A model generated the notes under the pieces. It was not told the origin of the DNA. It worked only from the letters and a program-made list of their open reading frames with translations, and did no database searches. A DNA stretch of 48,075 nt, the filler included, from Jimgerdemannia flammicorona (Eukaryota): assembly GCA_003990765.1 (NCBI GenBank). It is 2 parts of 2 records of this genome, joined end to end, with 100 filler letters (N's around TTAATTAATTAA, not from the genome) between each part and the next. Parts side by side here need not be neighbours in the genome. Positions count along the whole stretch, not along the records: positions 24,089 to 48,075 come from RBNJ01001037.1; 1 more part is not named here. One strand, written 5' to 3'. The position numbers and the translations under genes are program-made. Of the stretch, positions 10,373-38,164 are shown one piece after another; position 1 is the first letter of the stretch; each line of letters starts with the position of its first letter.

Positions 10373-10546
10373 CAGAGACTTCTTTTGCTCAAACCACTCA
10401 GAGTAAGCTAAGCTACATAGACATCTTTCAGTGAAAGACAATATGTTTTCAAGTTTTTATTTTGATTATACTGATGTATATCATATGGTGGGAGTTTATC
10501 TACAAGACACATCAAGTTTCAGCAAAAACCATCAAGTTTTGGTGAA

Positions 10547-13500
10547 ATGGCTAGTTAAGGTTTCTCTAGCTCTGAGTATCTAGAGAGGAGGAGGCCTGGT
10601 CTGGGCCTTCTTAAGAGCTTTGCAGCTGCTGCAGAGACTGATGTGGCTGCTGGAGGGACTGGTGGTCAGGGGAGATCTGGTGAAATTGAGGCCTGGTGTA
10701 CTGTGGTGAGAAGCAGGAGGACTGCAGCCAGGCCCTTGGAGGTGAGACAGGGGGGGGTGTAGTGTTGACAGGAGGAGGGGTCAGGTGATAGATCAGGTGA
10801 TGGGTCAGGTGTCTGGCAGGAGGCAGGGGGTCTGGTGGTGTGATGTTGGGAACTGGTTCTTCTAGGGCTGGGCCAGTAACTGGGGAGAGGGCTGCTGGTG
10901 ATACAGTGATAGCTGGTGAGGCAACTGCTGATATTTCTGGGATCAAGAAGAAGGTAACTCTGGTAGCTGGGATAAGTGAGCTGGTGGTAAAGCACTTCTT
11001 TCATAAGTCAGTATCAACATGGGCAGTTTTGGTGAACTTCCTGAGATTGGCAATATCAGCTAGGGAGGTTCTGAGACTGGTGGGGGAGAAAGTGGCTGGG
11101 GCTGAATCCTTGAAGTTCATCTCTTTGGTAGAGGCAGTGGAAATTGGATTTGTGGAGGAGGACACAATGATTAAGGCACTAGAGAAAGGACTGACTGTCA
11201 AGAGTGTCCAAATTGAGATAGTGAGGTGTTTGAGGTAGGACCTGCATACTGTTCAGCTGGTAGTAGAGGGGCTGCTAACTCTGGGCAGACAGAAGACCAA
11301 GAAGATGGTGGTAGAGGTACTGAGTAGCTATGGTGAGATAGTGGATTTTGGGTTCATATTCTGGGAGGGTACCAAATTGAGGTATGGTAACTGTGAGATG
11401 ATGCTGTAACTAGAAGGCAAGGAGGCAACTGGGCTGAGATGAGATTGGCCTGAGGGGATTTGAGTTAGAGGGCAAGAGTGCAAGGTGTGGAGGAGGAAAG
11501 GAGTAGAACAGAAGGAGAAAGAGTTGGCAATTACTCTAGAGGAGAGAGAGGCTGCAAAGAAGTTGCATAAGAGGAAGTGGGAAGAGTTTACCAAGGATTG
11601 GGTCTAGATTCAGGCAGATGGCAAGCAGAAGAGATAGAGGAAAGAGAATTGGGAGCATCTGCAGGCAGCCCTTTAGAGGGCAGTAGTGGAAGAGAAGGTG
11701 AGAGTAAAGGTGGCCAAGAATCAGATAGAAGGAGTGGAAGCAGCAGAGGTGTCCTTCTCTTAGCTGGGTGGTATGGAGAGCTCAGCATATATACCAGTGA
11801 GAGAGAAGTGGGCAGATAAGGAGGAGGTGGGAGAAGGGGGCTTTGAGGATGATATCAAAGTGATGCCAGAGACTCAGGTAAAGGACACCCATATGGCTAG
11901 AGTGGCAAATGTCCATTGGGAGTACTCTGAGGCTAGTGAGGTAGTATATTTGGAGAAAGTTGCAGAGGAGGATGAGCTGGTGGATGTGGCTTCAGATGTG
12001 TCAGCAGATAGAGAGCAACTGCAAGAGTTGAGTAGGACCCCCAGGTTATTGACTCCAGGGCCCCTGGTAATGACAGCAGAGAGCTGGTATCAGGCAGTAC
12101 TTGAGGAACTTGCAGAGAAGGACATCAAGGAAGTGGATGTATTTCATGGATCTCTGGAGGCATGGGAAGGATTTCTCAATATTGTAATATAGAGGCCTAA
12201 GTTGGTGATAGCAATAGTAGCAGCTTTCTAGATGATAAAGGATATAATGTTGATGAGAGCAGGATAGTAGACATCAGAAAGGTGGCAGCAGAAAGAGTGG
12301 ACCTTTTCTGTAGTAGTATAAATAGTAATTGAATCTGAAGGGCAATTTGCAAAGACTAGCAAGAGATCATTAGAGGAAGGGCCAAGAATATGGTGGCAGT
12401 TCCAGCAGAGCTTTAAACAATTTCTTTGATGATGATGAACAGTTTATATATCTTATCAATCAATATTAATGGATTGCATGATGGTATTAAGAGATAGAGG
12501 CTGTTTTTATGGCTTAAAGTCAGAAGATATGATATTATTTTTCTTCAGGATATTTGGGCTTATGGGGAGTAAGACTATGAGATATGGAGTAAAGAATAGT
12601 ATGGTAGTATGGGTTGGAACAAGTAGATGGACATCTTGGTTGGTATAGGCAAAGGTGAGCTGGTGGAGGTAAAGGCCTATAGTGACAGATTGGTATGGGG
12701 AAGACTAAAAGGAGGGGCTGGTGATGGTTTAGCAGTGGGCTTGGTTTATCTCCCTATAGTTAGCAGAGAGCAAAAGCAATGGGTTGAGAACTGGTGGGCT
12801 TGGGAAGGTCAGGAGGTAGTTGCACTAGACATTCTGGGGAAGGACTTTAATATGGTATGAAATTGGACACTGGATAGGTCAGATAGTGGGGCAGGTATAG
12901 TAGTATCCTCTGGACTGTCTTGATGGCTTCAGGTGGAGTGTGATATGAGACTGGTGGATAGTATCCATCAGTATCAGGTAGATGAGTCAGGACCTTTCAC
13001 CTAGTGGCACCCAGTTGGTAATGGATTAGTTGGAACATGAATTGATTGAGTGCTAGTAGTGGAGTATTGGGGCAAATTCTGGATATTGCAGAGGTATGTT
13101 GGTGCCCTTGGTCAGATTATTGGGGAGTGGAGGTATGTGGTAGATTCCAGACAGCAGGCTGTAGTGGAGAGTACTGGTGCCTCAATATGGCTTTTCTCAG
13201 GAGGAAGAAAGAGAGAGAACAGTTTGTGGACATTGTGAGACAGAAAGTAGTATGTTGGCAGAGTGATGGGCAGCTGATAGTGGAGTAGTGGGGTAAATTC
13301 AAACATTTGGCTGGTACTTACTGGCAGGATGTTGGAGAAGTGGCTGGGAAGGAGCAGAAGGACAAGGAAAGGAGGGTAGAGAAGGGGCTGCAATAGTGAT
13401 TGAAGCTAATGAAAGGGGGAAACTTATCTGGAGAGATATGCCACTAGCTGGCTGTGGAGGTGGCAGAGTTGTAGGCAGATTTGAAGGCAGCTGAGGACAG

Positions 13501-15420
13501 AACAGTAGATGGCCTGCTAGCCAGACTAAGAGCTAGGCAGTTGGAGGAAGGAGAGAGACCAACTAAATATCTGTCTGGCATTTTGAAGGCCAGAAAGATT
13601 TGATACAGCTGGGCCTCAGTATTGTATGAAGATAGAGTAGAGGTCTCTGAGATTACCAATATGTTGGGAAAGGTCTCAGAACAATAGCAGGCTCTCTGAT
13701 AGGATAGAAGAGAGTATGCTGAGAATGTGGTGCTTTGGAAGAATGATGACAATATGGTGAACAATTGGCCAATGATAGTAATACCTGAGATAGAGGGGGT
13801 AGTGATGAATGAGGTGTCTTTGGATGAAGTTTTGGATGGAGATATTGAGAAAGACATAGTCTGGCTCATCACCTGGAGAGAATGGGTTGCCCTAGAAATT
13901 CTGGAAGGAGTTTCAGACAGAGTTTGGTAGCTGATTGGTAGAGATGATCAACTCTATTCTAAAGGAGGGCAGCTGGATTGGCAATGACTTCTTGAGATTA
14001 GTTTCCCTACTATATAAGGAAAAAGGTGATCAGTGGGTGTGGCAGAATTGGCAACCCATTATACTGCTGAATGTAGATAGAAAGCTGATCTCAAAGATTC
14101 TAGTAGAGAGGATGCAGCAGTATATTGGCATACTGGTGGGTGAGGAGTAGTGAGGTTTTGTCAAGAGAAGATAGATTAGAGATAGTATGACTTAGATGCA
14201 GAATGTCTTAGAAGGCTATAGGAGCTGGCAAGTAGATGGTAGGATGGTCTTTCTGAACCAAGAGAAAGCCTATAACAGAGTACAGTGGAATTACTTAAAG
14301 ACTATTCTAAGGAGGATGAGATTTGATATAGTAAAAGTAAGATAATTGATGAGCTTAGTATGGGGATACAGAGCAGCAGTTATGATGAATGGTTAGAGTG
14401 GCCCAGAGTTTTCTTTGGGACAAGGTATGCTATAGGGAGACCCTCTCTTTCTCCTCCTTTATATACTCTCTCTAGAGCCATTGCTGGTATGGCTAAAGGG
14501 GCAGCTTTCTGAACTATAGATGGGTGATATGGTCTGGAAGCTAAGTGCCTTCACAGATGACATGGTGGTAGAGTTGAGTAGTATGGAGGATGTAGACCTC
14601 TTATAGGAAGAGATTGGATAGTATGAGAGACTAGCAGGAGCTAAGCTGAATTAGGCAAGTATGAGACAATAGAACTTAGTGCTGGCCTGGGAGAATATGG
14701 ATAATTTGGACAATTGGTAGCCATTGAGAGTACTGTTTGGTATCTAAGTATTTGGTTCTCAGTATATGAGACAGTCCTGCCAAAGGAGTGGTGGAGTGGT
14801 ATGATTCAGAAGTTAGAAGGCACCTTGACTGGCTGGTCTGGAAGGAGTTTCTCCTTGATTGGCAGAATTGTGATCTTGAATATATATTGATTGCCCAAAT
14901 TGTGGTATCTAGGGTATCACTTGGATTTTCCAGGGTGGGTAGTGTAGCAGCTGAAGAAGATTGTAAAAGGCTGGTTAGATATTGAAAGCAGCCACAGGTT
15001 GGGTGAGATATATTGGTAATATAGACAACTGATGGTGGCCTGGAGTTGGTGGACTTCAGGTGATGGCTAAAAGTACTTAGAGGCTAGTAGGGGTACTGGC
15101 TGGCTGAACTAAGTGAGGGGGGCTGGGGCAGGCTGGCTATGGACAATTGAGAGGTTTGGTTCTACTCTCATGATGAGGTTTGGAAGAATATGTGGGGTCT
15201 GCTTCAGGTTAGAAATGTCTATTGATTATGGTATAAGGGGTTTTGGTGGGATATAGTAGAGACCTGGCTGGTCATGGGGTTGGTAGGGCTAGAGATAGAG
15301 GTTGGTGAGAACTCTGAGCAGAGATGATGATAATTGAGAGATCTCTATATTGGTGACTATAGTCTGAAGGAGTACTTACTGATTGAGGCAATAAAGTAGA
15401 TCAGGTCTGACTCTCTGGAG
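10547..15420 (+). mobile_element. Decayed, 3'-truncated L1/Tx1-type LINE (LINE-B): ORF1 ~10547-12430, ORF2 ~12430-15420
   Basis: ORF2 starts MMMNSLYILSININGL (APE); ILGKDFN; RT motifs WQPIILLNVDRKLISKIL, FLNQEKAYNRV, GDPLFLLLY and AFTDDMVV; ORF1 RRM-like EVLSSYGEIVDFGFIFWEGT. No poly(A) or TSD seen. Confidence 0.88.
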
Positions 15421-17774: not shown

Positions 17775-20003
17775 ATGAGCAAGTCCCTTGCTGACAAGCT
17801 GGCGGAGATGGATTCATCCGCTCCCGCAGGTGTTTTATCATTCGGCTGTCCACTGAAGTTCCTCTTTTATCTTCGTTGCAACCTCTAAGCGAACCGTTAC
17901 TTACCACCTTCGCAGACTTCGACCCTGAAGACTTCGGTGAGTCAGTCTTTAACGATATGCCCGACCGTGACTCTGGAGGCTCGGACGACGAGGCGCTGGA
18001 TAACTCTGTAGCAGCACGAGAGCACTATATACAAGTGGGCAAGAGCGCAATCCGGAGAAAGCAGCAATTCTTAATGGACGATCCGAAATATTCAGGCAAG
18101 CGGAGCAGCAGGCAGGCAATTTTCGATCAAGGAGAAGACGATGAAGTAAAGGAGGGGCAGGGGCAAGAGGAAGATGAATTCAGGGAGGAGGATGAGGGAA
18201 GCGAGGATCACAACCTGTCTGAAGGTGATGGTACGGAAGATGACGAATTCCGCCGCAATGGCAACGATGAGAATACTTTCGAGGAGCCTGAAGCATTAAA
18301 AAATGAGTTGGCGAAAATTGAGGAAGAAGAAAGGTAGGCAAGACACAACGTATCCAAGGTGGTTGATATGACTCCGGTATATTCATACCTGTTATTTTTG
18401 TTATTTCACAGGATCTTAATCCGAAACATGTCGCAAAGCGCTAAGGCTGATGTTGAAAAAGGCCAACACGTGAAGACGCAGCTGGTCAGTTCACTTTTTT
18501 ACCGCTCACATTTGGATTGAATGTGACCATCGTAGCTGAAAAACGCCGCCCTTCCGGTGAAATTTGGCCATGGCAGGGTCTATGGGATACCTTTTTGGAC
18601 ACTCGTATCCGTATCCAGAAGGCAGTTGTGATTGCGAACCAGCTACCACAGGTGTGTTGTACTTCTTTATTTTCATTATCGTTTCTCCCTTCTCCGTCTT
18701 TAGGCAGGATTCACAAGCCGTCTAAGGCATGTGTGCTCACTACTTTGGATACCACATTGTTTAGTGGGACACCATGCCAGTTTTTTTGACGCAGAATGAT
18801 AGGGCCACCTCGGTACTAGATGACGCCAAATCAGAGTTACGCGGGCTCATTGATTCAATACTTGACGTACGGGTGGTAGGACTCGTTTTACATTTACTTA
18901 CCGACAGTTCTTGAGGTTTTCTAAGACAATGCTTTACTCATCGCATGGCACTGTACGTACTCAAAAGGGATTATGCCACGACAACGATGTCATTGTGCTG
19001 CCCAAGGGCGCCGCGACAAGTCGAAAGCGCCACTTTAATAATGATGACGAATACATTGATCACCTTTGGCAAGATATCCGGGAATTGGACGATATGTGAG
19101 TTCTTTCCTTGTCTGGATATATCGGGTTCATCTTCAAAACTGTTTCCATCGCAAATGGGCATATATATTTATCTTTTCTACGTTACATTTACACCAATAG
19201 ATTCTTGCCATATCGGAATCAAACGGTCGAGAAATGGGGCAATAAGATGCAAATTGCATCCGGCATTCCACTGAACAAGAAATTCAAAGCGTTTGATCAG
19301 GTTGGCAGTACCTACTACTGAATTTCCTGTTTTACGAGGTGAATAAATACCGATTGGTTGCTACTATTGAAAATCGCCGGGGAACAATCGGGGATCGCAA
19401 TAGGCCCAATATACTTCGGATCTTCCATATCGAATCCAAAGACTAATAGTTGAGCCACCCTCCATTGATTTACGGTCAACCATTCTGTCGTTTTATTGGC
19501 CAATGCTCGTTTTTAGAGCATTCTGACACAAATGAATAGCATACTCGCCGATAGGGAGCGGTTGGTCAAAAGAACCCAGCTGAAACGTTCAGAGTTCAGA
19601 TCATTGGGCAAGGTAAACCACCTTTTGTGTGTATGTGCGGGGTCTGGCTGGAGTGGAATGCATGACTTTTCTGTCGAGTTTAGTGCTCCATATCTTTCTT
19701 ACCGGTTCTGTAACCCGTCATAGCTCGTAACAGATCCCAGCAATGCTATCGCCGTTGACCCTCCAACAGACTACCATCTTACACACCATGACCCCGAAAT
19801 CTTCGACGATACCGATTTCTATGGCCAACTACTACGTGAGCTGATCGAGTCGCGCATGGTGGACGCGACAGATGATCCAGCGGCCGCTGGGTTGCGCTGG
19901 GCAGCCTTGAAGCAGAGCAAACAACGAAAAAAGATAGTAGACACGAAAGCGAGTAAAGGAAGGAGATTACGGTAAGTGATGCTCAATCCGAAGGTTTGTG
20001 AGC

Positions 20004-20046
<43 letters not shown>

Positions 20047-20381
20047 CTCGACTACGCTGATTGCTCAAGTGAAAAGCTGAATCATGTAGTCTATCCTATA
20101 TTAGCTACGAATTCAGTAATGTTAATAATGTTATCTCCTTATTATATGTTTATTATATATACTTCCTATGCAGATACCACGTTCATGAAAAGTTGCAAAA
20201 TTTCATGGCCCCGGTACCCGCCGGTACTTGGCATGAGGAAATGACGGATGAGCTATACGCGTCACTGCTGGGTAAGTCAGGCCGTTCGATGGATGAGGGG
20301 AGCAAGGATGAGGCGGAGGAAGAAACAAAGTCGATGGACGTGAATGGAGCGGCAATTGATGGATTGCGGATTTTCGGTTAA
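17775..20381 (+). CDS. BFR2: Protein BFR2/AATF (Che-1), SSU processome factor; 10 exons
   Basis: Exons joined at GT-AG give [50 protein letters not shown], an acidic tract, [28 protein letters not shown] (AATF-Che1 domain), [18 protein letters not shown] and [25 protein letters not shown] (TRAUB domain). Stop TAA at 20379-20381. Confidence 0.93.
20007..20043. repeat. (TA)n microsatellite in the last BFR2 intron
   Basis: Perfect TA run. Confidence 0.9.
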
Positions 20382-20805: not shown

Positions 20806-22438
20806 CTAACCCTTGCTTTTGTTGACTCCGTCTTTGTCCACTATGTCCGTGCGTGGGTTTGTAACTCGTGTCTTTGCCAATGCTTTCGTCTCGGCTTTCT
20901 CCTTCACCCTCACCAAACCCACCAAACCGCCTGCTGCATCCGCTGCCACATTTCCCGTGTCGCCATCCCGAACCGCCTGAGCAACACGACCGAACCCAAC
21001 AGTAGACAGAAACGGATCGATCTTCAATTTAGTGTGCACGGTAGCCAAGACCCCCAGCTCCTTGACAACCGAACGCGGAGTAGTGCCGCTGCGCACGTCG
21101 TCTAATGGTCCACTGGTACGTCGTCGCTTTTTGTCCTGGTTGAAGATGGACGAAGCGGCGATCTCGAGCTTGCGTTTTTCGGCTTGTTCGAGGACATGGT
21201 CTATAGTCGAACGCACGGGTAAAATTAGAAAAGTCAACGGTGAGTTTCTACGGAAGGAGTTGATATCATGGCATTCAATTTAAACTATAAGTGCGTGGTG
21301 TATGGCCACGTCAAAGTTTTCTCTTATCGATAATACTGCCCACCTGCAAATTCCGTCGTCTTAGCCTTGATTTCATCCTCCTCCGATTTCGGCAACAATG
21401 GTATATGTAGTGAATTCCTGTCTCTGATCTCCTCGGCTACGCGCTCTTCCATCTTGGCCAGCATCTTGTCTTCTCTGAATTTTTTCCTGAGTTTCTGAGA
21501 TAACGCGTATGGGTCAGACCACTGTGTTTCGTTGAGCCGTTGCAGACGAGTGAGTGCGGGTAATGCTTCTTCGCGCTTTTTCTCGTCGGTAACGGTGTGT
21601 TCGAGACGGTAAAAGGCGTCGGCAGCGAGCTTTTCAGCGGTCTCTTCGTCTAAGAGCACGATGCAAGGGAGTCGACGGTATTGATGACTGAATTATTCAA
21701 TCGAGCTGCAATGGTAAAAATGGCATCTTACTCATTGTCAACATACCTTTGAGCTTGATAACCTCGCTATCTTCTGGCTCCCATTCCTCTATTTTCTTAC
21801 GCGCCCCACTAATCACGAGATACTGAGTGGTCTGAAAGCGCCCATAAATACGAGCAAGTGATGTGGCAAGTTCCCGACGACGATTCAAACGTAAATTTTC
21901 GCCCGTGGCAATCGCCTTTATTCCAACTCAACCCGCAGCCTACATATCTATAAGAATCTGAAAACATAAAAGAATGTGTTACCTTCGGATCGGTGTGTAT
22001 CTCAATCCAGTTATCGCAGAGGTGGCATTTCATTCGAAACTGCCATATGGATGTGCTATGGTACATGCCAATTTTCTTTTTTTCGGCATTAAAGCGAACA
22101 CCTGCAGTCAAACAAACATTTAGTGTGCGATCTATTTTGTACCAAAAACAAACAGAAGAGTAAACATACCCATCGCTATATGTTCCCCGCAACCATCGCA
22201 CCAAATATTAAAAGGTAACTCGAATCTTTGGCGGGGAGCACACGAAAAACGTCTTGAGCACCCAGTAGCTTAGGGTAGCAAAGGTTAGGGCCAATAGTTC
22301 TCTGACGCACCTTAAGATGAGAATGCCTTTATCGATCTTGCGGGCCCGGCTACCCAGCGGGTGCTTTCCGACGAAAGAGTTGACGGTACCCTTGTCTGGA
22401 GTCCAGTCTGGGGGGTAGTACTTATTGAAGGGCTGCAT
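20806..22438 (-). CDS. YJU2B: Saf4/Yju2-family (DUF572) splicing factor, CCDC130/YJU2B-like; multi-exon
   Basis: MQPFNKYYPPDW..HPLGSRARKIDKGILILR-FELPFNIWCDGCGEHIAM-GVRFNAEKKKIGMYHSTSIWQFRMKCHLCDNWIEIHTDPK-TTQYLVISGARKK..DAFYRLEH..WSDPYALSQKLRKKFR. Two CxxC zinc pairs and canonical introns. Confidence 0.9.
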
Positions 22439-22623
22439 TGGATGTCGAAGTGGAGCAAGTGTAAGTACAAATGCGATTGTGTTCATACTCATCGCTGTAT
22501 CACATGACCAGGCAAACGTGATGTCATTCCGGCTATAACAATGAGAACATGTGATAAAAACACAAAAACACCGTCGGAAATCGTAGCGCATTACACGAAG
22601 AACTATCCTAAAGCCTCCTCTCG

Positions 22624-23672
22624 ATGGCGCGCCTACGAAAACACCTCGAAATTTTGTCCAAGTCAACCTCTTTCACCTTGACAATACGACTGAAAGCCAC
22701 GAGGCTTCTGGAAACGTGGAAGGTAATGTTGAATTGTTTCTTTCCGCGCGTGGATAAGGACCGTGTTCATACAAGGGACTACGCCTCGCCTTGTATGGGA
22801 TTGGTTCGAAGAAAACTGGGTCAGACTTCGCATTCTTTGGCCACAGCAGTTTTCAGCAGCACACTAGGGACTGCTTCTCGTCTGGTGTCGAACTGCGACT
22901 TCGCTGCTCCATGCTTTAGCTGTTCCGAGTCCTTTCAGGCGCATGTATTTGTAATCAGTGCTAGACTAATGTCAACAAAGCGAAGCTCAGAAAAGAAGAC
23001 GAACTTGCCGATATGATCATCAACTACGTCGCAAATAAAAAGAACGCGAACTCATTATGGTTCGTTGGGGCAAGGTTTTGTTATTGTCTTTGTGCTGAAA
23101 TATTGCGGCAGATGTTAGTAAGTGATCCTTGCACAATCCAGGAAGAGCAGCAAAAAACAACCGGGGTTACGAGGATCGTTACGAGAAGCAGGTGGAGGTA
23201 AAGTCCAAGAGGAGGGATATTTCATTGAGGTGAGTAGTTCCTTCTTTTTTTTTTAGCAATGCAAGAAAAGGTCGTTAATATTTTTATGTTCTGATCCTTG
23301 GGATAAAGAATCGCACATTGGTACGGAAGTAAAGAATATAGATGTTTGTACATATTTCATGCTTATTGTCTCATCGCTTATTGTTTGCACAAACTCAGAG
23401 TAAATCCCATGTGGCGGATTTAAACAAAAAGGTAAGGGCGCTATCGCTTCTCTAACTTCATCCAATGCTTCAGATTCATGGCGATTCACCATTGGTTTGC
23501 AGATGAGATTGGATTCTCTGAACGAAGAAGAATATGAGGAAGATGAATTCGTAGACATTCCAGCCATCACCAAAGATCCCAACCTATATGTGGATGGCCT
23601 GAATATACGCTCGCCAATCAACATGTGACGTCAATCGGCAAAATATGTCTCTGAGATAAGCAAACAAAAGTA
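22624..23672 (+). pseudogene. Probable spliced gene relic of unknown function, divergent from YJU2B
   Basis: Exon-like blocks with donors or acceptors: MARLRKHLEILSK..LLETWK|GTAATG; TNVNKAKLRKEDELADMII; EEGYFIE|GTGAGT; LDSLNEEEYEEDEFVDIPAITKDPNLYVDGLNIRSPINM*RQSAKYVSEI (internal stop). Confidence 0.4.
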
Positions 23673-23988: not shown

Positions 23989-24088
23989 NNNNNNNNNNNN
24001 NNNNNNNNNNNNNNNNNNNNNNNNNNNNNNNNTTAATTAATTAANNNNNNNNNNNNNNNNNNNNNNNNNNNNNNNNNNNNNNNNNNNN
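23989..24088. other. Assembly gap with artificial six-frame stop linker
   Basis: N44-TTAATTAATTAA-N44. Confidence 0.97.
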
Positions 24089-24891
24089 CTGTCCTACGAG
24101 ACATATGGTCACAGAGCACACATTTTACCCCAAGAGAGCTGCTCTTCGGAGAAGAAGATTCTGATGGAACCTCAGCCACAAATCTAGACCTAACTTGGAG
24201 ATGGGTTGATGCAGAGATCCGGAGACTACACCAAATCAGGAAGAAGGCTGAAGATTATATCACCAAGTCACAAGCACTGACAAGGAAGAATGCGGAAAAG
24301 AATCACAAGACCCTAGAACCCATCCGAATTGGAGAAAAGGTTCTACTGTATCGAAATATGGTAGAAGCCTCATGGTCACGAAAACTGGAGCCCAAATGGG
24401 AAGGACCCTTCTATGTACAAGATATCAAGGGAACTACCTTCTGGCTTAGAAAAATCTCAGGGACCATACTGCCTACCATGGTACATAGGAACAGACTCAA
24501 GAAGTACCATGAACCTATACAAGAGAAGCAAGATGTGATGACCGCTCGTGAGGTTCTAGTCCGCGAATCGTAACAGCATGTCCCGTGACCAGCAGGCTAT
24601 CTGTCTGGACCATTCTCTAAGGGATACGGCACTGGCAACTACATACTCATCCGTGAAGACTTTCGCAGACAGAGGAGTTCGAACCGTCAACTGATTGGTC
24701 AGGATCAGAATCAGGCCCTTGCTCTATATGAAGGGAGCGACCCTTCACCATCACGCCAAAATACAAAGGGAAGACGCCAGCCCATAAACACCAGTTTTCG
24801 ACCCCTTGCCAGAGGTTATGGGATCAGCAAATTTTTCGGGACTGGACCAATGAATAAGGATGCTCAGGAAGATCCTTATTCAGAAGGAAGA

Positions 24892-26392
24892 TGTAACAAT
24901 GACCCCAGAATGATGACATCAGCACAGGAGACAGCCTTTCTTTACAAGCCACCAGATCAGAGTACAAGAAGATCATACGGCATGTGAGATGAGCAACAAT
25001 GACCAACTGTGAGTCATCGTGACCACAGCACAAGCATCCTGAAGAATATAAAAGAAGGATCAAGGAACTGCAGTAGCAGCAACCAACAAGAACCCCAATC
25101 CCAAAATAGCTCAAAGACTTACCACAAATAAAATGCCTGCTGCCCGCCAAACCTCAAGGTCAAGGAATCATCAAGGTATCTCAGTCGAGGAAAGGATGTT
25201 TCAAGACATCAGAAGAGCCATGAGGACCCATTCAAGAAGGACTCCTAGCGCCAACCTGGGTACTGCAGACCCTTATCACTTTATCCTCTACCGCTGTGAA
25301 ATGGAAACAAGGATCACCATCACTACCGAATACCTCCAAATGTGGCAGGAGTACGAAATAGGAAACCTCCTCTGCCAGGAGTTCCCACAGGCCAGCCCTC
25401 AAGAGCTACAAGATGCCACTCCCATGGACTTACGTGAGGCAAGGACAGCAAAGAAGATCCATCAGATCTTCAGGCATGCACCATGGTCAATCCCCAACTT
25501 GAAGTATGTTAGAGTCTCAGACTTCAGAGACCTGTCATCCCATCAAATCAATGCACTAGAAGCCAGGGTGGCTACAGAAGCCCGGTCCACTATCACCCTC
25601 AACAGTGAAGAAGTTGAAGACTTCTGGCACCCTATCCTTCAGGACAACCCAGACTAGTTCCTGCAAGGGTTGATCTCAGTATTCCAAGGCCCAAGCATCT
25701 AGGTCAGACCTCCCCAGGACCCCACATTTGTCCCTTACTTTGTGGAAGAGAACCTCATAGACTGGAGAGCTCCAGATCTTGTCCCCGATTTCCCCGCCGA
25801 ACGTGATGATGTCATTGGCGATGACGTCATCCCGCGCGACATACCCGAAGCACGTGAACCGTGTGACGAAGTACGCGAAACGCGCGACCTGCATGAAGAG
25901 TTCGCAGATCTCATCTCCTTCAGTGATGATGATGATGATGATGATGAAGCTCCCATGATCCTGAACTTTCTGCTCTAAAAAGTTCTTTGTTACACTGGAT
26001 AATGCCAGCACTGGTATTCTGAGGTGATGCGAAATTGTTCCAGCTCCGGCATTTTGATGTGATACTAAATAATGCCAGCCTTGGAACTTAGTAGTTTTAG
26101 TTATTGGAATTTATATTTAGCTTTATATCTTAGCAACCGTTGAATTATATTTTGTATAAATACCCCTCTTATTTCCTTTGAAATAAAGTCAGTTCTATCC
26201 GGTTCACTTATACACTTCCTTACAAGCAATCTAAGAGATAACAAGACAGTTAAAGATAAGAAGTTTGAGGACTATAAGACCTTGGGAAGGCACTCCAATA
26301 AGAACTTGCTTATAACAACTTGAGTTAGTCTAAGAGATACACCTTGAAGAGAATCTGGTATATTTGAAGAACTCAGCGACCACTACGTGACA
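24892..26392 (+). repeat. 1.5 kb LTR of family G2
   Basis: TGTAAC..TGACA termini; TATAAATA at 26155-26162 and AATAAA at 26182-26187; matches 26676-28226 and 33922-35480. Confidence 0.92.
25133..25978 (+). pseudogene. LTR (U3)-encoded ORF of unknown function, ~280 aa, with two internal TAG stops in this copy
   Basis: ORFs 25133-25657 and 25742-25978 are in the same frame. The two TAG stops read CAA/CAG (Gln) in the copy at 27995-27150. Confidence 0.7.
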
Positions 26393-26675
26393 CTATATTC
26401 AAACTTATATTACTTAAAATACTTTTTGTAATTGATATAGTATATAATCTCAAAATCTATCAAATGAATGTTAAGACAGTATTTCTGAATAGTGATATAG
26501 ATACTGAACTATATATCCATTAACTATAAGGATACAAAAATAGTAAGCTCATATATAGATTATATAAGAGACTATATAATATTAAGTAAGTAGTATAATT
26601 ATAGAATAAAAGAATTAATAAACATCTTCTTAATAATTGATTCACATATTGTGAAGCAAACAATTGTATATATAT
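26393..26675 (+). pseudogene. Ty1/Copia RT fragment (5' part)
   Basis: IYQMNVKTVFLNSDI (decayed QMDVKTAFLNG)..RLYKRLYNIK..CEANNCIYI; continues in frame after 35484. Confidence 0.85.
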
Positions 26676-28226
26676 TGTCATGTAGTGGTTTCTGAGTCCT
26701 TCAAATATACCAGATTCTCTTCAAGGTATATCTCTTAGACTAACTCAAGTTTATTATAAGCAAGTTCTTATTGGGGTGCCTTTCCAAGGTCTTATAGTCC
26801 TCAAACTTCTTATCTTAAACTATCTTGTTATCTCTTAGATTGCTTGTAAGAGATTGTATGTAAGTGAACCAGAATTGACTTTATTTCAAAAAAAATAAGA
26901 GAGATATTTATACAAAATATAATTCAATGATTGCTAAGATATAAAGCTAAATATAAATTCCAATAACTAAAATAAAATACCAGAACATAGAGAACTGCCA
27001 AGTTTCAGTATCAGTACTGATAGTTGTACAAGTTCAGAATACTGGTATAATTTCAGTAATATAGGAAAATAGTACTGGAATAATTCTGAGTCACATCAGA
27101 ATGCTAGTAGTGGAATAGCTATTATATAGGAAAAGAGTGCTGGTATAATTCAGTATAACCAAAAGACTTTTTGGAGTAGAATATTCAGGACCATAGGGGC
27201 TTCATCCTCATCTGAGGTCAGAATGTCTTCAAAGAAGATAAGGTCTGTAAATTCATCATTATTACATAGGTCATGCATTTTGCATATGTTGTGTAAGATG
27301 ATATTATCACTGATGATGTTATCACATTCAGCAGTAGTGGGAACAAGGAGGTCTGGAGCTCTCCAGTCTATAAGGTTCTCTTCCACAAAATAGAGAACAA
27401 ATGTGGGGTCTTGGGAAGGTCTAACCTGGATGCTTGAGCCTTAGAATACTGAGATCAATCCTTGCAGAAATTGATCTGGGTTGTCCTGAAGGATGGGATA
27501 CTAGAAGTCTTCTACTTTATCATTATTAAGAGTGATAGTGGACTAAGCTTCTGTAGCCACCCTGGCTTCTAGTGTATTGATATAGTGGGCTGATAGGTCT
27601 CTGAAGTCTGAGACTCTAATATACTCCAAGTTGGGGATTGACCATAGTGCATGCCTGAAGATCTGATGAATCTTCTTAGCTGTTCTTGCTTCTTATATAT
27701 CTATGGAAGTAGCATCTTATAACTCTTGGGGGCTGATCTGTGGGAACTCCTGTCAGAGGAGGTTTCCTATTTCATACTCCTGCCATATTTGGAGACATTC
27801 AGTAGCAATAGTGATCCTTGTTTCCATTTTATAACAGTAGATGATATAATGATAAGAGTCATCAGTTCTCAGGTTAACACTAGGAGTCCTTCTTGAGTAG
27901 GTCCTCATGGCTCTTCTGATGTCTTAGAATATCATTTTTTTAACTGAGGTGTCTTAGTGGTTCCTTGATCTTGAGGTTTGACAAGCAGCAAGCATTTATT
28001 TATAGTAAGTCTTTGAGCTATTTTGGGATTAGTGGGTCTTGTTGGTTGCTGCTACTATGGTTTCTTGATTCTTCTTTTATCTTCTTCAAGATACCTATAC
28101 TATGATCACAGTTGGTCATCATTGCTCATCTTGTATACCATATGATCTTCTTGTACTCCGATCTGATAGCTAGTAAGGAAAGGCTGTCTCCTGTACTGAT
28201 GTTATCATTTTGGAGTCATCATTACA
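26676..28226 (-). repeat. 3' LTR of the G2 element (contains the U3 ORF copy 27995-27150)
   Basis: Direct repeat of 33922-35480 with TG..CA termini. Confidence 0.92.
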
Positions 28227-28539
28227 TCTTCCTCCTAAATAAGGATCTTCTTGAATGTCCATATTCATTGGTCTAGTTCTGAAAAATTTGCTGATCTCAT
28301 AACCTCTGGTAAGGGGTCAAAAAGTAGTATTTATGGGCTGGTGTCTTCTCTATATATTTTGGCATGATGGTGAAGAGTTACTCCCTTTATATAGAGCAAG
28401 GGCCTGATTCTGATCTTAATTAATCAGTTGATAGTTCAAACTTCTCTGGCTTCAAAAGTCTCATAGATGAGTAGTTACTGGTATTATATCCCTTAGAGAA
28501 TGGTCCAGATAGATAGCCTACTGGTCATGGGATATGCTG

Positions 28540-31500
28540 TTACAATTCATGGACTAGAACCTTGCAGGTAGTCATCACATTTTGCTTCTCATATATAGGT
28601 TCATGGTACTTCTTGAGTCTGTTCCTGTATACTGTAGTAGGCAGTATAGTTCCTGAGATTTTTCTAAGCCAGAAGATAGTTCCTTATATAGAAGGGTCCT
28701 TCCCATTTGGGCTCCAGTTTTTGTAACCATGAGACTTCTATTATATTTTAATATAGTAGGATCTTTTCTCCAATTTGGATGGGTTCTAGGGTCTTGTGAT
28801 TCTTTTTTGCATTCTTTCTTATCAGTACTTGTGACTTGATAATGTAATCTTCAGCCTTCTTCCTGATTTTATGTAGTCTCCAGACTTCTACATCAACCCA
28901 TCTCCAAGTTAGATCTAGATTTGTGGCTGAGGTTCCATCAGAATCTTTTCTCCAAAGAGCAGTTCTCTTGAGGTAAAGTGTGTACTCTGTGATCATATAT
29001 CTTATAAGACAGAGAGGACAGTTGGGAGGTAGTTATGTTATTCCAATTCTCATATGTATATGTCTGAGATCTTCACCAGAATATTCTTGAGAGTCTTGTT
29101 GGTTCTCTCTATCTGTCCATTTCCTTAAAAGTGGTATGCAGTGGTCTTGATGTACTGAATCTTATATTTCTGATACATTATCTTGTGGAATCCATTGATA
29201 AATTCTGTACTATGGTCTGTAGTGATTTGCTTTAGTATCTTGTAGCAGCAGATGATTTCTCAATGCAGGAAGTCAGCTATAGAGAGGGCATTGGCTTCTT
29301 GTAATGCTCCTGCTTCTATCCATTTGGTAAAGAGATCTATAATAACTATGATGTAGTAGTTTTCTAATAGTATTACTGGTAGTAGCCCAATGATATCTAT
29401 TGTGATGTGGTAGAAGAAGATAGGCTTAATTTTTGATAATCTGGGTACCTGGTCTTACTGATCTTATTTCTGTTTTTGGAACTTGTCACACCCTTTGACA
29501 AATTGGCACAGGTCTTCTTCTATCTTGAGCCACTATATAGTTCTTCTTGCCTTATCATATGTATGTATTGGTTCCTCCTAGGTGTTCTTATTTGTGTACT
29601 TCTTTCATTACTTGATACTTCTTATGTTTAGGTATTATGAGCTTTTCTCTTTTTCTAAGTATGGTATTGTCTAGTTCAAACTGTTTCTAAGTCCAGTTGA
29701 TGATAGTAATTGTCCAGGGTTCAAGGTAGTTGGATATCTTCTACTGCCCAAGGTAGCTAATTAATCTATAGTATAACTCCTTATTCATGTTAAATAGTCT
29801 TGATGGGAGTATTTTGGAGTGTTCTTGAGAGTGTATCAGCATTGGTGTTGGTTCTTCCTGAGCAGTGCTTGACAGTACAGTCATACTCTTACAGCCTGTA
29901 GATCTATCTGGCATATATTCCTTTTGGATTCAGAGTATAGAATAGTCAGACAAGAGCAGAATGGTCTGTTTGAATAGTGAAGTGTTTTCTGGCTAAATAG
30001 TAGTGGAATTTGTCTACTGCCCAAACTACTGCTAAGCATTTGAGCTTATATGACTCATAGTTTTGTTCTGCTCTGCAGATACCTTGGTTTGCATAGAAGA
30101 TGACATATTCATATCTATCTTTCTTCTGAGCTAGGACTGCTCCAAGCTCTATAGTACTTGTATCTGTCTACAGGATGAACTCTAGGTTCCAATCTGGTCT
30201 TCTGAGGATGGGTGCTTGGGTCAACCAGGTCTTGAGTTCATTGAAGGTTTCTTAGCATTCCTTGGTTTATTCGAATTTAGTATTCTTCTTGAGTAGCTTA
30301 TAGATAGGTATTGTAATGTTGGAGTATCCTTTGATAAATCTCCTATAATAGCTGGCCAGTCTAAGGAAGACATGGACTTCTGTGGTTGTTCTGGGTCTTG
30401 GGTAGGCTGCAATAGCCTCAATCTTCATAGGATCTGTATAGATTCCAGTCTGGTTGATGAGATGTCCTAGGTAGGTGATTTCCTGAGCCAAGAACTTGCA
30501 TTTCTTAGGCTTGATATAGAGGCCATGCTTCTTGAGCTTCTTGAGGGCTAGCTGTATATGGTTGACATGTTCCCATATAGTGTTGCTAAAGATGATCACA
30601 TCATCAATATAGACAAAGAGCCATTTTCCAATCTCATTGCTGAAGACTCTATTCATTATTCACTGAAAACTTGCTGGGGTATTGTACATTCCAAATGGAA
30701 TTTGCAGATAGATATAGGTGGCATCAGATATGATAAAGGCTGATTTCTCACTGACATCTTGAGTGAGACCAATCTGATGGAAGTCTGAGAACAGATCCAA
30801 GGTAGTATAGTATTTGGCTTCACTTCTAAGGGTGGTAAGGATTTCTTGAATATTTGGCAAGGGCTACCTATCCTTCTTGGTAATTGTATTGAGCTTCCTA
30901 TAGTCAATGCAGAGTCTTGGCACAAACTCTCTAGGCTTACTTCCTTTCTTTAGAGCAAGGATAATGGGTGAAACCCAGGGACTGATAGCTTGCTTGATAA
31001 TTCTAGCTTCTTCTATTTCCTTGAGTTCTGCTTACAGTCATTCTTTGTAGGCAGATAGTATAGGTCTGGCTTTCTGGTAGATGAGCTTGGTATTGCCAGT
31101 GTCAACTTCATGATAGTACTTGAGTTCTTGATTGTGGATATCCCTGAAGTCTGTAGTAAGTACTTCTTTGTTCTGGTATAGGATCTTAAGAAGTTGTTCT
31201 TCCAGGGGAAAGTTTTCTCCAATAGTATATATGTGCTTGTTCTGGTCCTTATCTTTCTTGTGCTCAAGTTCAGTAATCTTGGTGGTAGCATAGACTCCTC
31301 TTCCAGTAGATCCAAAGCCTTGTTCTTCTCTCTTGATCTTTATAAGTTTGATGGCTTCAGTGATCTTAGGCTTCTTGATTTCGTGGATCAGCATCTGGCC
31401 AATCCTGTCATACTTCTTGACTTCAAATAGGGTGGTGGGGTTGTGATTTCTAACTATGAGAAAGATCTTGCCAGTGTAATCAGGATCAATTACTCCTCCT

Positions 31501-32430
31501 TTAACTGAGATTTCACTTTTGGCCAGACTGCTCCTGGTCTTGATAATTCCAACATAGTTCTCTGGCAACTTGACTCCAAGTCTGGTGCCAAGTAGGGTGG
31601 TGGTCTATAGTTCAAGAGTTATATCTTAAATGCTGGCAAGGTCCATTTTTATGACTCCTTCAGTTTTGTATTCTGGGATCTTAGCTTTGGGGTGAAACTT
31701 CTTGACCTTGAGGGTGATGTCTGATTCTTATTCCTCCTCATCATCACTATTAGCTTGAAGCTCTGGAGGCTGGTTATCTTCTTCAGCTTTCTTTTTTGCT
31801 TCAGCAGCTTCTTGCTCATGCTTCTGTTGGCAGATTTTCCTGACTTCACTGATATAGGACCAGTAGTTATTCAGGTGTTCAGAGCAGTACATCCTAGTAC
31901 TATGGGGATATCTTTCTTGAGGGGCATAGCTATTGATGATCTTGTTATACCACTGCTCATCTGTGAGCTTGGGTGTCTTGTTCTTATTCTTGTTTACCAA
32001 GTATATGAAGACTTCTGTATCCACTTCATCTTCTTCCTCTATATCTGATAGGACTCCTTTGTGGATATTGATAGAGACTCATACCTTTCTTCCTCTATAG
32101 TTGATCTGCATCTTCTGGGCATTGAGGTCAATGGAGGCCTTGGTCTTGTGAAGCTATTGGTTGCTAATAAGGATATTATAGTTAGTGGCACTTGTAATAA
32201 TCACATCTACTGGAATGGTAGCTCCTCTTATCTTAATGGGGACTTCTCAGATTTTACCAAGAGGGGTAGCTTGTATACTATCTGCTATAATATAGACTAT
32301 CTTGGTGGACTCTTCAATGTCCCAGCCTAGATGGTCAATTGTCTTCTTACTCATAAGGCATTCTCCAGCATCAGTATCAATGATGGCATTAAAGATATAA
32401 TCTTTGATCTGACATAGGGTATAGGCTGAT
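28540..32430 (-). pseudogene. G2 pol: protease, Cys/His module, dUTPase, RT, RNase H, integrase
   Basis: PR AIIDTDAG (~32370); RT LCIDYRKLN, TLDLFSDFHQI, PFGMYNTPASFQ, VYIDDVIIFS; RH ENYESYKLKCLAVVWAV; INT IDIIGLLP, IDLFTKWIEA and TTDHSTEF. Confidence 0.92.
31302..31712 (-). pseudogene. dUTPase domain located between protease and RT
   Basis: Trimeric dUTPase motifs KTRSSLA, GGVIDPDYTG, DRIGQML and REEQGFGSTG. Confidence 0.92.
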
Positions 32431-33801
32431 GTCTTGCACTGGTCTTTGGATTCTTTGCCTAAGTTTTCAGATTCTTCCTGTATATTGTGAGCTTTTACAA
32501 TCTTGTACTCTTAATTCTTGATAGTAGTTGTAAGTCCTACTCTCAACTGCTGTCTGAAGGCAGAGACTTTGGCTAGCTGTCCAAAAGTAGCATTGATCTT
32601 CTGTTCCTTAAGATCCTTGTAGATATTATACTGGTGGATCTTAGTCTTATACAGCTTCTGTTTCTTCTTACTTTTACTTTCTCCTGAGACTGGAGTAGTG
32701 CCTTCAATAATTTGGTGGACAGCTTTATCTAACTCTATATCTTGATCAATCTCCTTGGGTTGGGTCTTGCTTTAGATAGTGACAGCTAAAGTCTTCTTTG
32801 GTCTTCTAACTAGCTTGCTATTGCTCTTCTTGTCATAGGGCTTGGACTGGGTTCTGATATCTATCAGAGTAGAATTTGAACTTCTCATAGTATTCTTCAT
32901 CATCAGTATCACCAATCTCTTCGATGACTACTACATTGGTTTGTTCTCTGGTTCTGCTAGCATTGCTTAGTTGGGCTTTGTGTCTTGTTTCAGTCATGCA
33001 ACTCTTTGTATAGTGACCTTCTTCTCTGCATCTGAAGCATGTGATATTATATTCTTCTATAGTAGCTGCAAATCTCTGTACTGGTCTCCTATTGGTGCTT
33101 TGGACTTCTTTAACAATATCACCAAGATGTATAGTTATCTCAGCGAACTGCTTGGTGAGTTCCTCTACTGGGTCAGCTTTGGCTACCTTGGGGGTAGGTG
33201 GGGATGGTTATCTGTTTACAACTGTAGCAGATATGATATTGGTTGGTTTTGATGGCTCTATCTTGATACCAGTTATTTTCTCCATTAAGTGTTCAGCAGA
33301 GTATCTGGTAGTCCAATATCTCTATGCAAAGACTACTTTCTAATCAAGAATCAGTGTAGCTGGGGTAGACTAGATTGCTAGGGCAATTTCAGGGTGAATT
33401 CCTTTGAGAAAGGTTTAATCCACTATTTGTTCCTTAAGGTAGTCATCATAGTCAGCTAAGACAATCTGGTGGCAGATTTGGATATAGAATGAGTTGGAAT
33501 CTTCGCTGAGTCCCTAGCAGATAGTATTGAGTTAATCCTTGAGAGCTTGCTTGATCTCTTCAGTATAGTATGTTGTTCTGAGAAAGGCCTTCATGTTGGC
33601 AAGTTTGGCTGCACCAGTATCAGTAATGGTAGCTATATTGAACTTGTCTCTGGCAGGTCCTCTGAGGCTGACAGATAGAAGAGCTAATTGTGCATCCACA
33701 CTAAGGGCTTATACAGCAGCAAATTGTTCAAAGTCTTTAATAAATGTCAGGATTGACTCTTTGGTAGTATATCTATAGAATGTGGGAAGATATATTTCCA
33801 T
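32430..33801 (-). pseudogene. G2 gag (boundaries approximate)
   Basis: CCHC knuckle CFRCREEGHYTKSC at ~32998-33040; retrotrans_gag-like helical region upstream. Confidence 0.8.
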
Positions 33802-33921
33802 CTTATCTTAAATTCTTGCAGGGGTGACTCTTGTAGTCAAGGTAGTTGTTGTGGTAGTTGTTCATTTTTCAGCTTGAAAGTGAGGGATTCATCTTGAATC
33901 ATCAGCCAATAGGTACCAAGT

Positions 33922-35480
33922 TGTCATATAGTAGTTGTTGAGTCCTTCAAATATGCCAGATTCTCTTCAAGATATATCTCTTAGACTAACTCAAGTTTGT
34001 TATAAGCAAGTTCTTATTGGAGTGCCTTCCCAAGGTCTTATAATCCTCAAACTTCTTATCTTAAACTATCTTATTATCTCTTAGATTACTTGTAAGAGAT
34101 TGTGTATAAGTAAACCAGAACTGACTTTATTTCAAAAGAAATAAGAGGAGTATTTATACAAAATATAATTCAATAGTTGCTAAGATATAAAGCCAAATAT
34201 AAATTCTAATAACTAAAATAAAATACTAGAACATGGAGAACTACTAAGTTCCAGTGTTGGTACTGATGGTTGCATAGGTTCAGGATACTGGTATAATTTC
34301 AGTGATATAGGAAAATAGTACTGGAATAATTCTGAGTTATATCAGAATACTAGTGGTGGAATAGCTATTATACAGGAAAAGAGTGCTGGTATAATTCAGT
34401 ATAACTAAAGGACTTTTTAGAGCAGAATATTTAGAACTATAGAGGCTTCATCCTTATCTGAGGTCAGGATATCTTTGAAGGAGATGAGGTCTATGAATTC
34501 ATTGTTATTGCATAGATCACATATTTCACATATATCACATGGGATGACATCATCACTAATGATGTCATCACATTTGGCAGTGGCAGGAATAAGGAGGTCT
34601 GGAGCTCTCCAGTCTATGAGGTTCTCTTCTATGAAATAGGGGACAAATGTAGGGTCTTGGAGAGGTCTAATCTGGATGCTTGGGCCTTGGAATACTGAGA
34701 TCAATCTTTATAGGAATTGATCTGGGTTGTCCTAGAGGATGGGATACCAGAAGTCTTCTACTTTATCACTATTGAGGGTGATAGTAGACTGGACTTCTGT
34801 TGCCACCCTGGCTTCTAGTATATTGATATGGTAGGCTGAGAGGTCTCTGAAGTCTGAGACTCTAACATACTCCAAGTTAGAGATCAACCATAGTATATAT
34901 CTGAAGATCTGATAAATCTTAGCTGTCCTTACTTCACATATATCTATAGGAGTGGCATCTTGTAACTCTTGGGGGCTGGGCTGTGGGAACTCCTAACAGA
35001 GGAGGTTTCTTATTTCATACTTCTGCCACATTTGGAGGTATTCAGTAGTAATAGTGATCTTTGTTTCCATTTTATAGCAATAGAGGATATAATGATAAGG
35101 GTTACTAGTTCCCAGGTTGGCACTAGGAGTTCTTCTTGAGCAGGTCCTCATGGCTCTTCTGATGTCTTGGAATATTCTTTCTTTGATTGAGGTACCTTAG
35201 TAGTTCCTTGATCTTAAGATTTGGTGAGCAGTAGATATTTTATTTATAGTAAGTCTTTGAGCTATTTTGAGATTGATGGGTCTTATTGGTTGCTGCTACT
35301 ACAGTTTCTTGATCCTTCTTTTATATTCCTCAAGATACCCATACTGTGGTCATAATGACTCACAGTTGGTCATCATTGCTCATCTTATATGTCATATGAT
35401 CTTCTTGTACTCTGATCTAGTAGCTTGCAAGAAAAGGCTGTCTTCTATGCTGATGTCATCATTCTGGAGTCACCATTACA
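33922..35480 (-). repeat. 5' LTR of the G2 element (contains the U3 ORF copy ~35238-34417)
   Basis: Direct repeat of 26676-28226; followed by a PBS-like sequence. Confidence 0.92.
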
Positions 35481-37168: not shown

Positions 37169-37709
37169 AATAGTAAATTCAAATTTCTGAATACTGATCA
37201 GATAGTGTTCTCTGATTTGAATTTCTAGAATAGTGAATAAGAAATAATAACTATGTAATATATTTGACAATAGAGAGCAAGCTGATAATCTAATAATAGA
37301 GGATAGTTTAGTAAGAATAGAGAGTGAACTAATAATATATCAATAAAGAATAATCTGACAAAATTAGAATAGAGTGAACTAGCAAGCAAGAATAGAGGAC
37401 AAATTGTAATTTAATAAAATAGGATAATTTAGAAATAGAGGATGATTTAATAAAGAGTAATTTGATAATTTCAATTTGATAATAGAGAAAGATATTGAGT
37501 ATATTGAAGAGGATAAAGATTGGACATTAATAGTTATTGAGTAATATTTTGAAGGTATAATTATTGACCAGATTGTAATATGAATAATTAGAACAAAAAG
37601 CAGTCTTTATTTAGAATTTTAATAAAGTATACTTACAAGAAGCTTTTATAATAGAGGATAACTATATATAATATAAACTATTATTATACTTAATAAAAGA
37701 GATATTAGT

Positions 37710-38164
37710 TATAATAATCTTATAGTTATATTTTAGTTTTAATACTTTTTTACATCTTTTTACTAGTATTTTCTTATTTTTTCTTAAATATTCTACTATA
37801 TTCTAATATCTTCTAAGTACTTAAAAATCTTCTCTTAGTATTAAGATATTATTAGAATATTTTTGTCTTTTTTCAACACTAAGTAGTACTAAATATCTAA
37901 TTATAGAACCTTTTGAAACATTGTTAGTCATCTTTGCTGAGAATCTATTTCTTGATCTTTCTATTCTTTTCCAAGATCTTTTCAGATATTTCTTTCAGAT
38001 CTTATATAAATATCCTTATTCTCTACTTGAATAAAGTTTAGAATATTTACTTCTAGAATTCCTTTAAGAATACTTAAACCTACAAGTATCTCTTCAAGCT
38101 ACTTTAGATCTACTAAAATTACTAGACTTAACTACTTTCTTTTAAAGAAACTAAAACTATTATA
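37710..38164 (+). repeat. 5' LTR of a Gypsy element from the same family as 8656-9118
   Basis: Colinear similarity with 8656-9118 (e.g. TATAAATATCCTTATTCTCTA); followed by PBS-like TAGTAGCAG (decayed TGGTAGCAG, initiator-tRNA-Met type). Confidence 0.8.

Follow-up and report, generated by a model that had tools for sequence, protein, structure and literature searches.

A protein gene inside the probable U3 region of the long terminal repeats of a dUTPase-bearing Ty3/Gypsy family from Jimgerdemannia flammicorona

The genome of Jimgerdemannia flammicorona (assembly GCA_003990765.1) contains Ty3/Gypsy long terminal repeats (LTRs) that carry a frame of about 280 codons in what is probably their U3 (unique 3′) part, and it is this LTR gene that is considered here. 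The window, i.e., the whole stretch of DNA analyzed, is 48,075 nucleotides long and consists of parts of two records joined by 100 filler letters, with positions 24,089 to 48,075 coming from RBNJ01001037.1. Three copies of the LTR lie in the window, and their boundaries were set by self-blastn of the window together with a three-way alignment of the copies. Copy A, the least decayed one, occupies 24892-26392 on the plus strand (1501 nt, TGTAAC...GTGACA). Copies B (28226-26676) and C (35480-33922) are on the minus strand and represent, respectively, the 3′ LTR and the 5′ LTR of a single element. All three have a 5′ TGTAA and a 3′ TGACA, that is, the TG...CA termini of LTRs. A polypurine tract (AGAAGGAAGA or AGGAGGAAGA) stands directly 5′ of copies A and B (at 24882-24891 in the case of A), and a sequence resembling a primer-binding site, TGGTACC.., begins 3 nt past copy C and is followed by gag; no tRNA was matched to it. 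The flanks of the minus-strand element have only ATAT (4 nt) in common, a possible target-site duplication in AT-rich DNA.

The internal region of the minus-strand element (28227-33921) encodes gag, with a CCHC knuckle visible in its frame, followed by protease (PR), dUTPase, reverse transcriptase (RT), RNase H (RH), and integrase (IN), all of them decayed. When this region is read through its stops, Pfam recognizes RVT_1 (7e-29), RNase H (3.6e-28), and dUTPase (PF00692, 31302-31688 on the minus strand, E 9.4e-23, between the protease and RT), as well as, below its cutoff, Asp_protease (E 2.9e-4, 21.4 bits) and rve (26.3 bits). Since these matches lie between the flanking LTRs B and C, direct repeats surrounding a PR-RT-RNaseH-IN internal region as in Ty3/Gypsy LTR elements, the minus-strand unit is a Ty3/Gypsy element of 8.8 kb whose dUTPase is situated between PR and RT. 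Comparison with dUTPase-bearing fungal Gypsy elements reveals the same PR-dUTPase-RT-RH-IN order: the available part of the source places the dUTPase of PosPlaTy3-5 from Postia placenta between PR and RT (PMC2864245). Its figure legend also names an “add. ORF” of unknown function, and in the part available none is said to lie in an LTR (PMC2864245). In contrast to this shared order, pol of the present element is at most 43% identical to long proteins among the matches listed; the 556 matches of the pol search are scattered over animals, plants, and metagenome contigs, which is uninformative as to the clade, and the dUTPase Pfam family is absent from all 120 long pol relatives listed.

Copy A is preceded by the 3′ end of a second pol, that of a plus-strand element (24089-24891, plus strand), which comprises an integrase C-terminus, the end of the open reading frame (ORF) at 24573, a spacer, and the polypurine tract, and is 81% identical to 29012-27136. 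This element is truncated upstream by two runs of N, 44 nt each (23989-24032 and 24045-24088), which leave ~800 nt of pol before LTR A; the assembly may have joined it artificially to the host genes upstream. In contigs from two sequencing runs (word shares 0.06 and 0.05; probably DNA), the LTR is found in numerous diverged versions, whose loose ends fall at 24892 and 26392. The bins on the pol side, 24400-24868, have mostly little or zero cover by these contigs, an observation that says nothing on expression or copy number.

The frame in question begins 241 nt into the LTR, is followed by another 414 nt of LTR, and is present in both LTRs of the full element and in the third LTR. In copy A, it spans 25133-25978 on the plus strand and comprises 282 codons from the ATG start to a TAA at 25976-25978, with TAGs at 25655-25657 and 25700-25702. 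Its counterpart in copy B (27995-27150, minus strand) bears eight internal stops and has lost the terminal stop, and that in copy C (35238-34417, minus strand) has four internal stops, lacks 3 nt by deletion, and reads ATA where A has its ATG. An earlier note on this DNA had placed the same ~280-codon frame in all three LTR copies, and self-blastn and the three-way alignment find it there. The note had also held that the consensus looks open, and at the positions of the two stops of A, copies B and C do have Gln codons (CAA/CAG); in A itself, the two in-frame TAGs reduce the uninterrupted ATG ORF to just 174 amino acids. Fixed stops or frameshifts, according to the same note, would tell against a gene; in fact, the stop positions differ between the copies, and the in-frame indels that distinguish them are 3, 24, and 3 nt long, all multiples of 3. 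Two antisense ATG ORFs (72 and 73 amino acids) at 25676-25956 on the minus strand run opposite to the part of the LTR gene that encodes the acidic tail; these are probably incidental, and one of them is Ser-rich, as expected opposite GAT/GAA repeats.

The gene is flanked by candidate expression signals of the LTR. Upstream, the sequence TGAGTCA at 25010-25016 (plus strand), which we take to be an AP-1/Gcn4-type site with a presumed functional role, stands 31 nt before a TATA box, TATAAAAG, at 25047-25054 (plus strand); TGAGTCA is kept in copy C and deleted in copy B. This TATA box is a candidate promoter of the LTR gene, situated 86 nt before the ATG; it recurs unchanged in C and in L001, a metagenome contig of 1345 nt with an intact 323-codon relative of the gene, while B has GATAAAAG. 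The contig begins at AATATAAAAG, and this sequence upstream of the ATG matches 10/10 between A and L001. Downstream, an indel-rich spacer (25979-26154, plus strand), with large indels in A relative to B and C, leads to the core LTR signals (26155-26187, plus strand), namely TATAAATA at 26155-62 and AATAAA at 26182-87. The frame, which ends at 25978, is located upstream of both, as the earlier note had maintained, and both signals are conserved in L001, where TGTATAAATACCCCTC is identical and AATAAA follows ~20 nt further on. Nucleotide identity between A and L001 amounts to 0.67 in the ORF, drops to 0.44 in the spacer, which is effectively unalignable, and rises to 0.70 in the TATA/AATAAA island, with an exact 16-mer.

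A poly(A) signal ~20 nt after the TATA box is characteristic of retroelements with a very short R (terminal repeat) region, in which the signal effectively belongs to U3. If the U3/R boundary is placed here, U3 would extend from 24892 to ~26187 and contain the entire gene, a position of the type known for the sag gene of mouse mammary tumor virus (MMTV). The presumed short R and U5 (unique 5′) part, 26188-26392 on the plus strand, is where the LTR copies of the window agree best with one another (90-91%).

The gene is dead in each of the three window copies, which C>T/G>A hypermutation has inactivated. Of the changes found in B only, 73 of 99 are of the C>T or G>A type, and of those found in C only, 75 of 103; the GC content is ~0.46 in copy A versus ~0.33 in the other copies. 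The two LTRs of the minus-strand element are 14% apart (86.2% identity over 1563 nt, 26675-28226 versus 33921-35480, by self-blastn). The context of the decay is not strictly CpG or CpA, the 3′ neighbors being distributed as CA 24/38, CC 29/21, CG 12/8, and CT 7/8; judged from its base changes, the decay pattern of 26676-35480 resembles that of repeat-induced point mutation (RIP). Such decay and the presence of a dUTPase-bearing Gypsy element, a type described in fungi (PMC2864245), make a fungal host likely.

Such decay provides an internal control for selection on the frame. Within 25133-25780, the differences between A and the state shared by B and C fall on the three codon positions as 15, 5, and 38 (chi-square p 3.7e-7), and 33 of them are synonymous and 25 non-synonymous. 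Over the same interval, the changes private to B or to C, which arose after the copies had diverged, are distributed as 15, 10, and 16 in B and as 19, 11, and 15 in C, with no periodicity; taken together, they include 29 synonymous and 57 non-synonymous changes, in contrast to the comparison of A with B and C (Fisher p 0.0065). A comparison of dN/dS, which had been proposed in the earlier note as a check, points in the same direction: between A and the intact ORF of L001, the codon positions differ at 98, 70, and 149 sites, and the proportions of non-synonymous and synonymous differences, pN and pS, are 0.286 and 0.728, with a ratio of 0.14 that should be read as soft because dS is saturated (2.65). 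These sequence comparisons indicate that the frame is a real protein gene that was under purifying selection while the element family was active.

Relatives of the product are few, and all of them are metagenome proteins, on contigs of 540-4848 nt. A word-index search of proteins returned six clusters, and an exhaustive profile search found five clusters at 50% identity among 1,835,955,588 protein representatives; in a metagenome scan, one locus, L001, was confirmed out of 380 pattern matches. The relatives are 27-90% identical to the window protein, many of their frames are intact (200-342 amino acids), and they have in common an MP[AP] start, the motifs WxEYEI, HQIFRHAPW, NPILQDNPDQ, FxGP, PYF, and IDWR, and the acidic tail. 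No longer or fused form was present among 8000 scored candidates, and no homologue of host type was seen among the five clusters, a result that applies to protein databases rather than to the host genome. In the ESM Atlas, one cluster stands at 0.91, probably the protein’s own family, and all else at 0.87 or below. In all, the family is very small and has no known domain.

The features of the protein agree with what the earlier note had read from the sequence, namely, a basic N-terminus, a helical core, an acidic C-terminus, and no resemblance to Env. The first 45 residues of A have a net charge of +6 and the last 70 a net charge of -20. Twelve members of the family were examined for the tail, one of which (P0017) ends before it; in the remaining 11, the net charge of the tail varies from -9 to -27 and the D+E fraction from 0.20 to 0.36, and the motifs F-x-[DN]-L-I-x-F and P-x-x-L-N-F recur in most of them. 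The tail is disordered, and an acidic domain so rich in bulky hydrophobic residues has the composition of acidic trans-activators, a comparison of the way the domains may work and nothing beyond it. No segment resembling a transmembrane (TM) helix is present: the maximal 19-residue Kyte–Doolittle mean is 0.44 in A and 0.44-1.05 across six of six members. Nor is there a hydrophobic N-terminus in any of the six members tested, with means of -0.63 to -1.64 over the first 20 residues. Lacking both features, the protein is neither Env-like nor Sag-like. An Env-like third ORF was also considered and rejected: in addition to the missing signal-peptide-like and TM segments, the frame is inside the LTR and hence also in the 5′ LTR, not between pol and the 3′ LTR.

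In Pfam, the window protein matched zero families, and no DNA-binding domain could be recognized there; 14 members of the family gave sub-threshold matches only, to ATG5_HBR (three members, best E 0.028) and GAE_BBS1 (one member, E 0.23). Sequences from the PDB yielded no matches at E <= 10. Two AlphaFold2 models, with a mean pLDDT (predicted local distance difference test score) of 51.3 and 56.5, both contain the helical core, whose best block reaches a pLDDT of 87-90, and the first model has a short beta hairpin at PYFVEENLIDWR. Foldseek searches with the models against the PDB and BFVD (viral models) gave no matches at E <= 0.001, and in a VIA-wide fold search, the best Z values were 4.4 and 5.0, the latter being due to a single long helix of 51 residues. 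Because the models are weak (mean pLDDT 51-57), these blanks weigh little either way and demonstrate neither a new fold nor the lack of a known one.

Taken as a whole, the locus is best explained as a U3-borne accessory gene of ~280 codons in a dUTPase-bearing Ty3/Gypsy family, for which a cassette organization and a regulatory function are proposed; we put the probability of this explanation at roughly 55%. As regards expression, the conserved TATAAAAG 86 nt before the ATG suggests that every LTR could express the gene by itself. Transcription from the upstream promoter (TGAGTCA and TATAAAAG, 25010-25054) would yield an mRNA of ~1.1 kb, polyadenylated by means of the AATAAA in the same LTR, so that the 5′ LTR, the 3′ LTR, and solo LTRs might all make the protein, from an mRNA whose 3′ end is shared with the genomic RNA. 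That each LTR combines a promoter, the ORF, and a shared poly(A) signal in one self-contained unit of this kind appears quite possible from the arrangement of these signals, though somewhat short of an even chance.

As to function, the product may be a soluble, probably nuclear regulator. Binding of nucleic acid or of a host factor would fall to the basic N-terminus and the helical core, and the conserved acidic–hydrophobic tail (F-x-[DN]-L-I-x-F ... L-N-F) would serve for activation or for recruiting the host machinery. In this way, the protein would boost the element’s own LTR promoter, similarly to foamy-virus Tas though unrelated to it. A regulator of this kind, most likely a trans-activator feeding back on the LTR promoter, is put forward tentatively, and the activator idea in particular, raised already in the earlier note, is a guess made from the charge layout and the acidic–hydrophobic tail. 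The combined proposal, according to which every LTR, solo LTRs included, is an autonomous RNA polymerase II cassette for a trans-acting regulator of a new protein family, is likewise to be regarded as possible but doubtful.

Several known systems resemble the LTR gene in part. U3-borne genes are found in a few retroviruses: sag of MMTV lies within U3, and nef and bel overlap it. Sag is a protein of ~300 amino acids encoded inside U3, upstream of the LTR TATA box, and hence duplicated in both LTRs; the LTR gene is alike in that its ORF is in U3 upstream of a TATA box and occurs in both LTRs. However, Sag is a type II membrane glycoprotein, whereas the LTR-gene product has no TM-like segment; moreover, the carrier here is a Ty3/Gypsy retrotransposon of a microbial eukaryote, and no sequence or fold similarity to solved proteins was found. 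A functional analogy is provided by foamy-virus Tas/Bel1, a regulator of ~300 amino acids with an acidic C-terminal activation domain, which acts back on the LTR and is expressed from a second (internal) promoter, on an RNA that has the same 3′ end as the genomic RNA; bel2/bet is another 3′ accessory gene of these viruses. The model proposed here would work alike, activation by the LTR-gene protein being itself part of the proposal; unlike the LTR gene, tas is mostly in the internal region, and no homology was detected (zero matches at E <= 0.001 among viral models). In Cassandra elements (terminal-repeat retrotransposons in miniature), each LTR contains a 5S RNA gene with its own promoter, and solo LTRs keep the gene. 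An independent gene in the LTR is thus common to both systems, although that of Cassandra is an RNA gene transcribed by RNA polymerase III, and the LTR gene would be protein-coding and transcribed by RNA polymerase II.

Other LTR retrotransposons offer a further parallel. Additional ORFs (aORFs) of Grande, RIRE2, Retand, and Boty are described, in the available part of the source, as conserved ORFs of unknown function that are present in most copies and have no homologue outside transposable elements (TEs); they are reported there from the stretch of the internal region that follows pol and precedes the 3′ LTR, and are often antisense (PMC7264820). The LTR gene is likewise an extra conserved ORF, but it is in sense orientation inside the LTR and, consequently, is also present in the 5′ LTR; assignment to the aORF class of the internal region was rejected, since the frame is wholly within the LTR. 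In the full-text literature searched, from which subscription journals are mostly missing, no LTR retrotransposon was found to be described with a protein ORF in its LTR, and the papers retrieved speak of location in LTRs in other senses; this is a lead and not a proof. Accessory ORFs of retroelements are known; here, the location in the LTR is unusual and the protein family undescribed.

Two other explanations accept the gene and differ as to what the protein does or how it is made; both seem unlikely, without being far-fetched. The protein might act post-transcriptionally or against host defence, either as a Rev/Rex-like adaptor of RNA export or as a suppressor of RNA interference, heterochromatin, or RIP-type silencing. 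The arginine-rich N-terminus (RQTSRSRNH..RRAMRTHSRRTPS), the conserved, leucine-rich C-terminal motif P-x-x-L-N-F-L-L, and the fact that the element family is visibly targeted by C>T hypermutation are consistent with such a role, and a precedent for export is reported from C. elegans, where an LTR element requires its CERV protein to have the genomic RNA exported, as stated in the part of the source available (PMC10309623). On the other hand, neither the PDB nor the fold searches revealed any similarity to factors of this kind, the motifs do not match the export-signal consensus cleanly, and the window copies were not protected from hypermutation.

Alternatively, the gene may be expressed from the 3′ LTR only, as proposed in the earlier note, on a spliced or subgenomic RNA from the main promoter, as in the case of MMTV sag or nef, with TATAAAAG being incidental. 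The U3 of the 3′ LTR is carried on every genomic RNA, this is how retroviruses normally express a gene located there, and an AG (..AAAATAG) that could serve as an acceptor is found 24 nt before the ATG. A pure acceptor model, however, requires neither the upstream TATA box nor the start context nor TGAGTCA, and all of these are conserved.

Less probable still is passive transduction, i.e., that a host gene or its fragment has been fixed in the LTR without any role for the element. No domain typical of TEs was found by Pfam, and the identity profile of the LTR looks as if a core LTR had been extended: the 3′ ~300 nt (26095-26398) are 90-91% identical to both other copies, as compared with ~80% in the ORF-bearing part. 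LTR retrotransposons are known to capture host sequences, and yet, according to the same source as far as it was available, transduced genes usually occur in one or few copies (PMC7264820). Against capture, the ORF is complete, its start and stop are conserved, and it shows purifying selection across lineages that are 27-45% identical; the LTR context is the same wherever DNA was visible, and no homologue of host type, longer or differently built, was found in the protein clusters or among the 8000 candidates.

Finally, a chance open frame in a non-coding U3 would fit the stops in three of three window copies and the lack of matches to known domains, but it is for practical purposes excluded by the internal control (third-position bias between lineages at p 3.7e-7 and none in the private decay changes), the L001 comparison, and relatives that keep intact ORFs of 200-342 amino acids down to 27% identity, along with indels in frame that are exclusively multiples of 3, and is refuted as far as the data go.

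The explanation preferred here, an accessory gene in U3 with a regulatory product, has nevertheless to be weighed against a number of points that speak against it or restrict it. Even the supposedly neutral pair of copies B and C gives a dN/dS of 0.37 by the NG86 method, probably because C>T transitions inflate the synonymous counts; the method ignores transition bias, and absolute ratios are accordingly soft. Selection was deduced from few sequences, with L001 as the single DNA locus from outside the window, and an LTR location of the homologues was seen for the window, L001, and the contigs of the two runs only. All three window copies are broken, so that none of them is functional today, and a host paralogue of the LTR gene may exist. 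Acidic–hydrophobic tails also occur in proteins that are not activators, both structural models are poor, and no fold, Pfam, or PDB match points to a function. Promoter use, splicing, and translation of the gene, as suggested here, are read from the sequence alone.

Other features of the window lie outside the two Gypsy elements. Beyond the N runs, there is an AATF/Che1-TRAUB gene with introns at 17795-20381 on the plus strand (PF13339, PF08164) and a Saf4/Yju2 splicing-factor gene at 21324-22672 on the minus strand (PF04502, E 1.2e-18 and 8.5e-15). A pair of direct repeats, 38302-39280 and 42746-43723 (980 nt, 89% identical, ~4444 nt from start to start), probably represents the LTRs of a small or non-autonomous element. 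Another direct repeat, 8643-9125 and 37696-38171, is 480 nt long with 76% identity, its copies being 29 kb apart in window coordinates. GC skew is strong and opposite in two stretches, from -0.38 to -0.48 at 2001-8000 and from +0.41 to +0.45 at 10001-14000, at a GC content of ~0.43-0.46, as though the two stretches were inverted versions of a single strand-asymmetric sequence; Pfam had no match for seven stop-to-stop ORFs from 1414-15083, six of which are inside the skewed stretches.

LTRs usually count as non-coding control regions, which are masked in annotation pipelines and used for dating insertions on the assumption that they evolve neutrally. A protein gene under selection inside an LTR breaks both assumptions and would turn solo LTRs into possible sources of protein. 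Accessory genes in U3, a hallmark of a few complex retroviruses, would also have arisen in Ty3/Gypsy elements of microbial eukaryotes, and the compact family without a known domain comes with a testable hypothesis, namely, self-activation or defence against silencing. If the proposal of a cassette for a regulator is true, the LTR gene would be an independent retrotransposon counterpart of the accessory genes of complex retroviruses, and the element would spread an activator or anti-defence gene of its own through the genome in hundreds of copies, with the product still being made after the coding body of the element has been lost.

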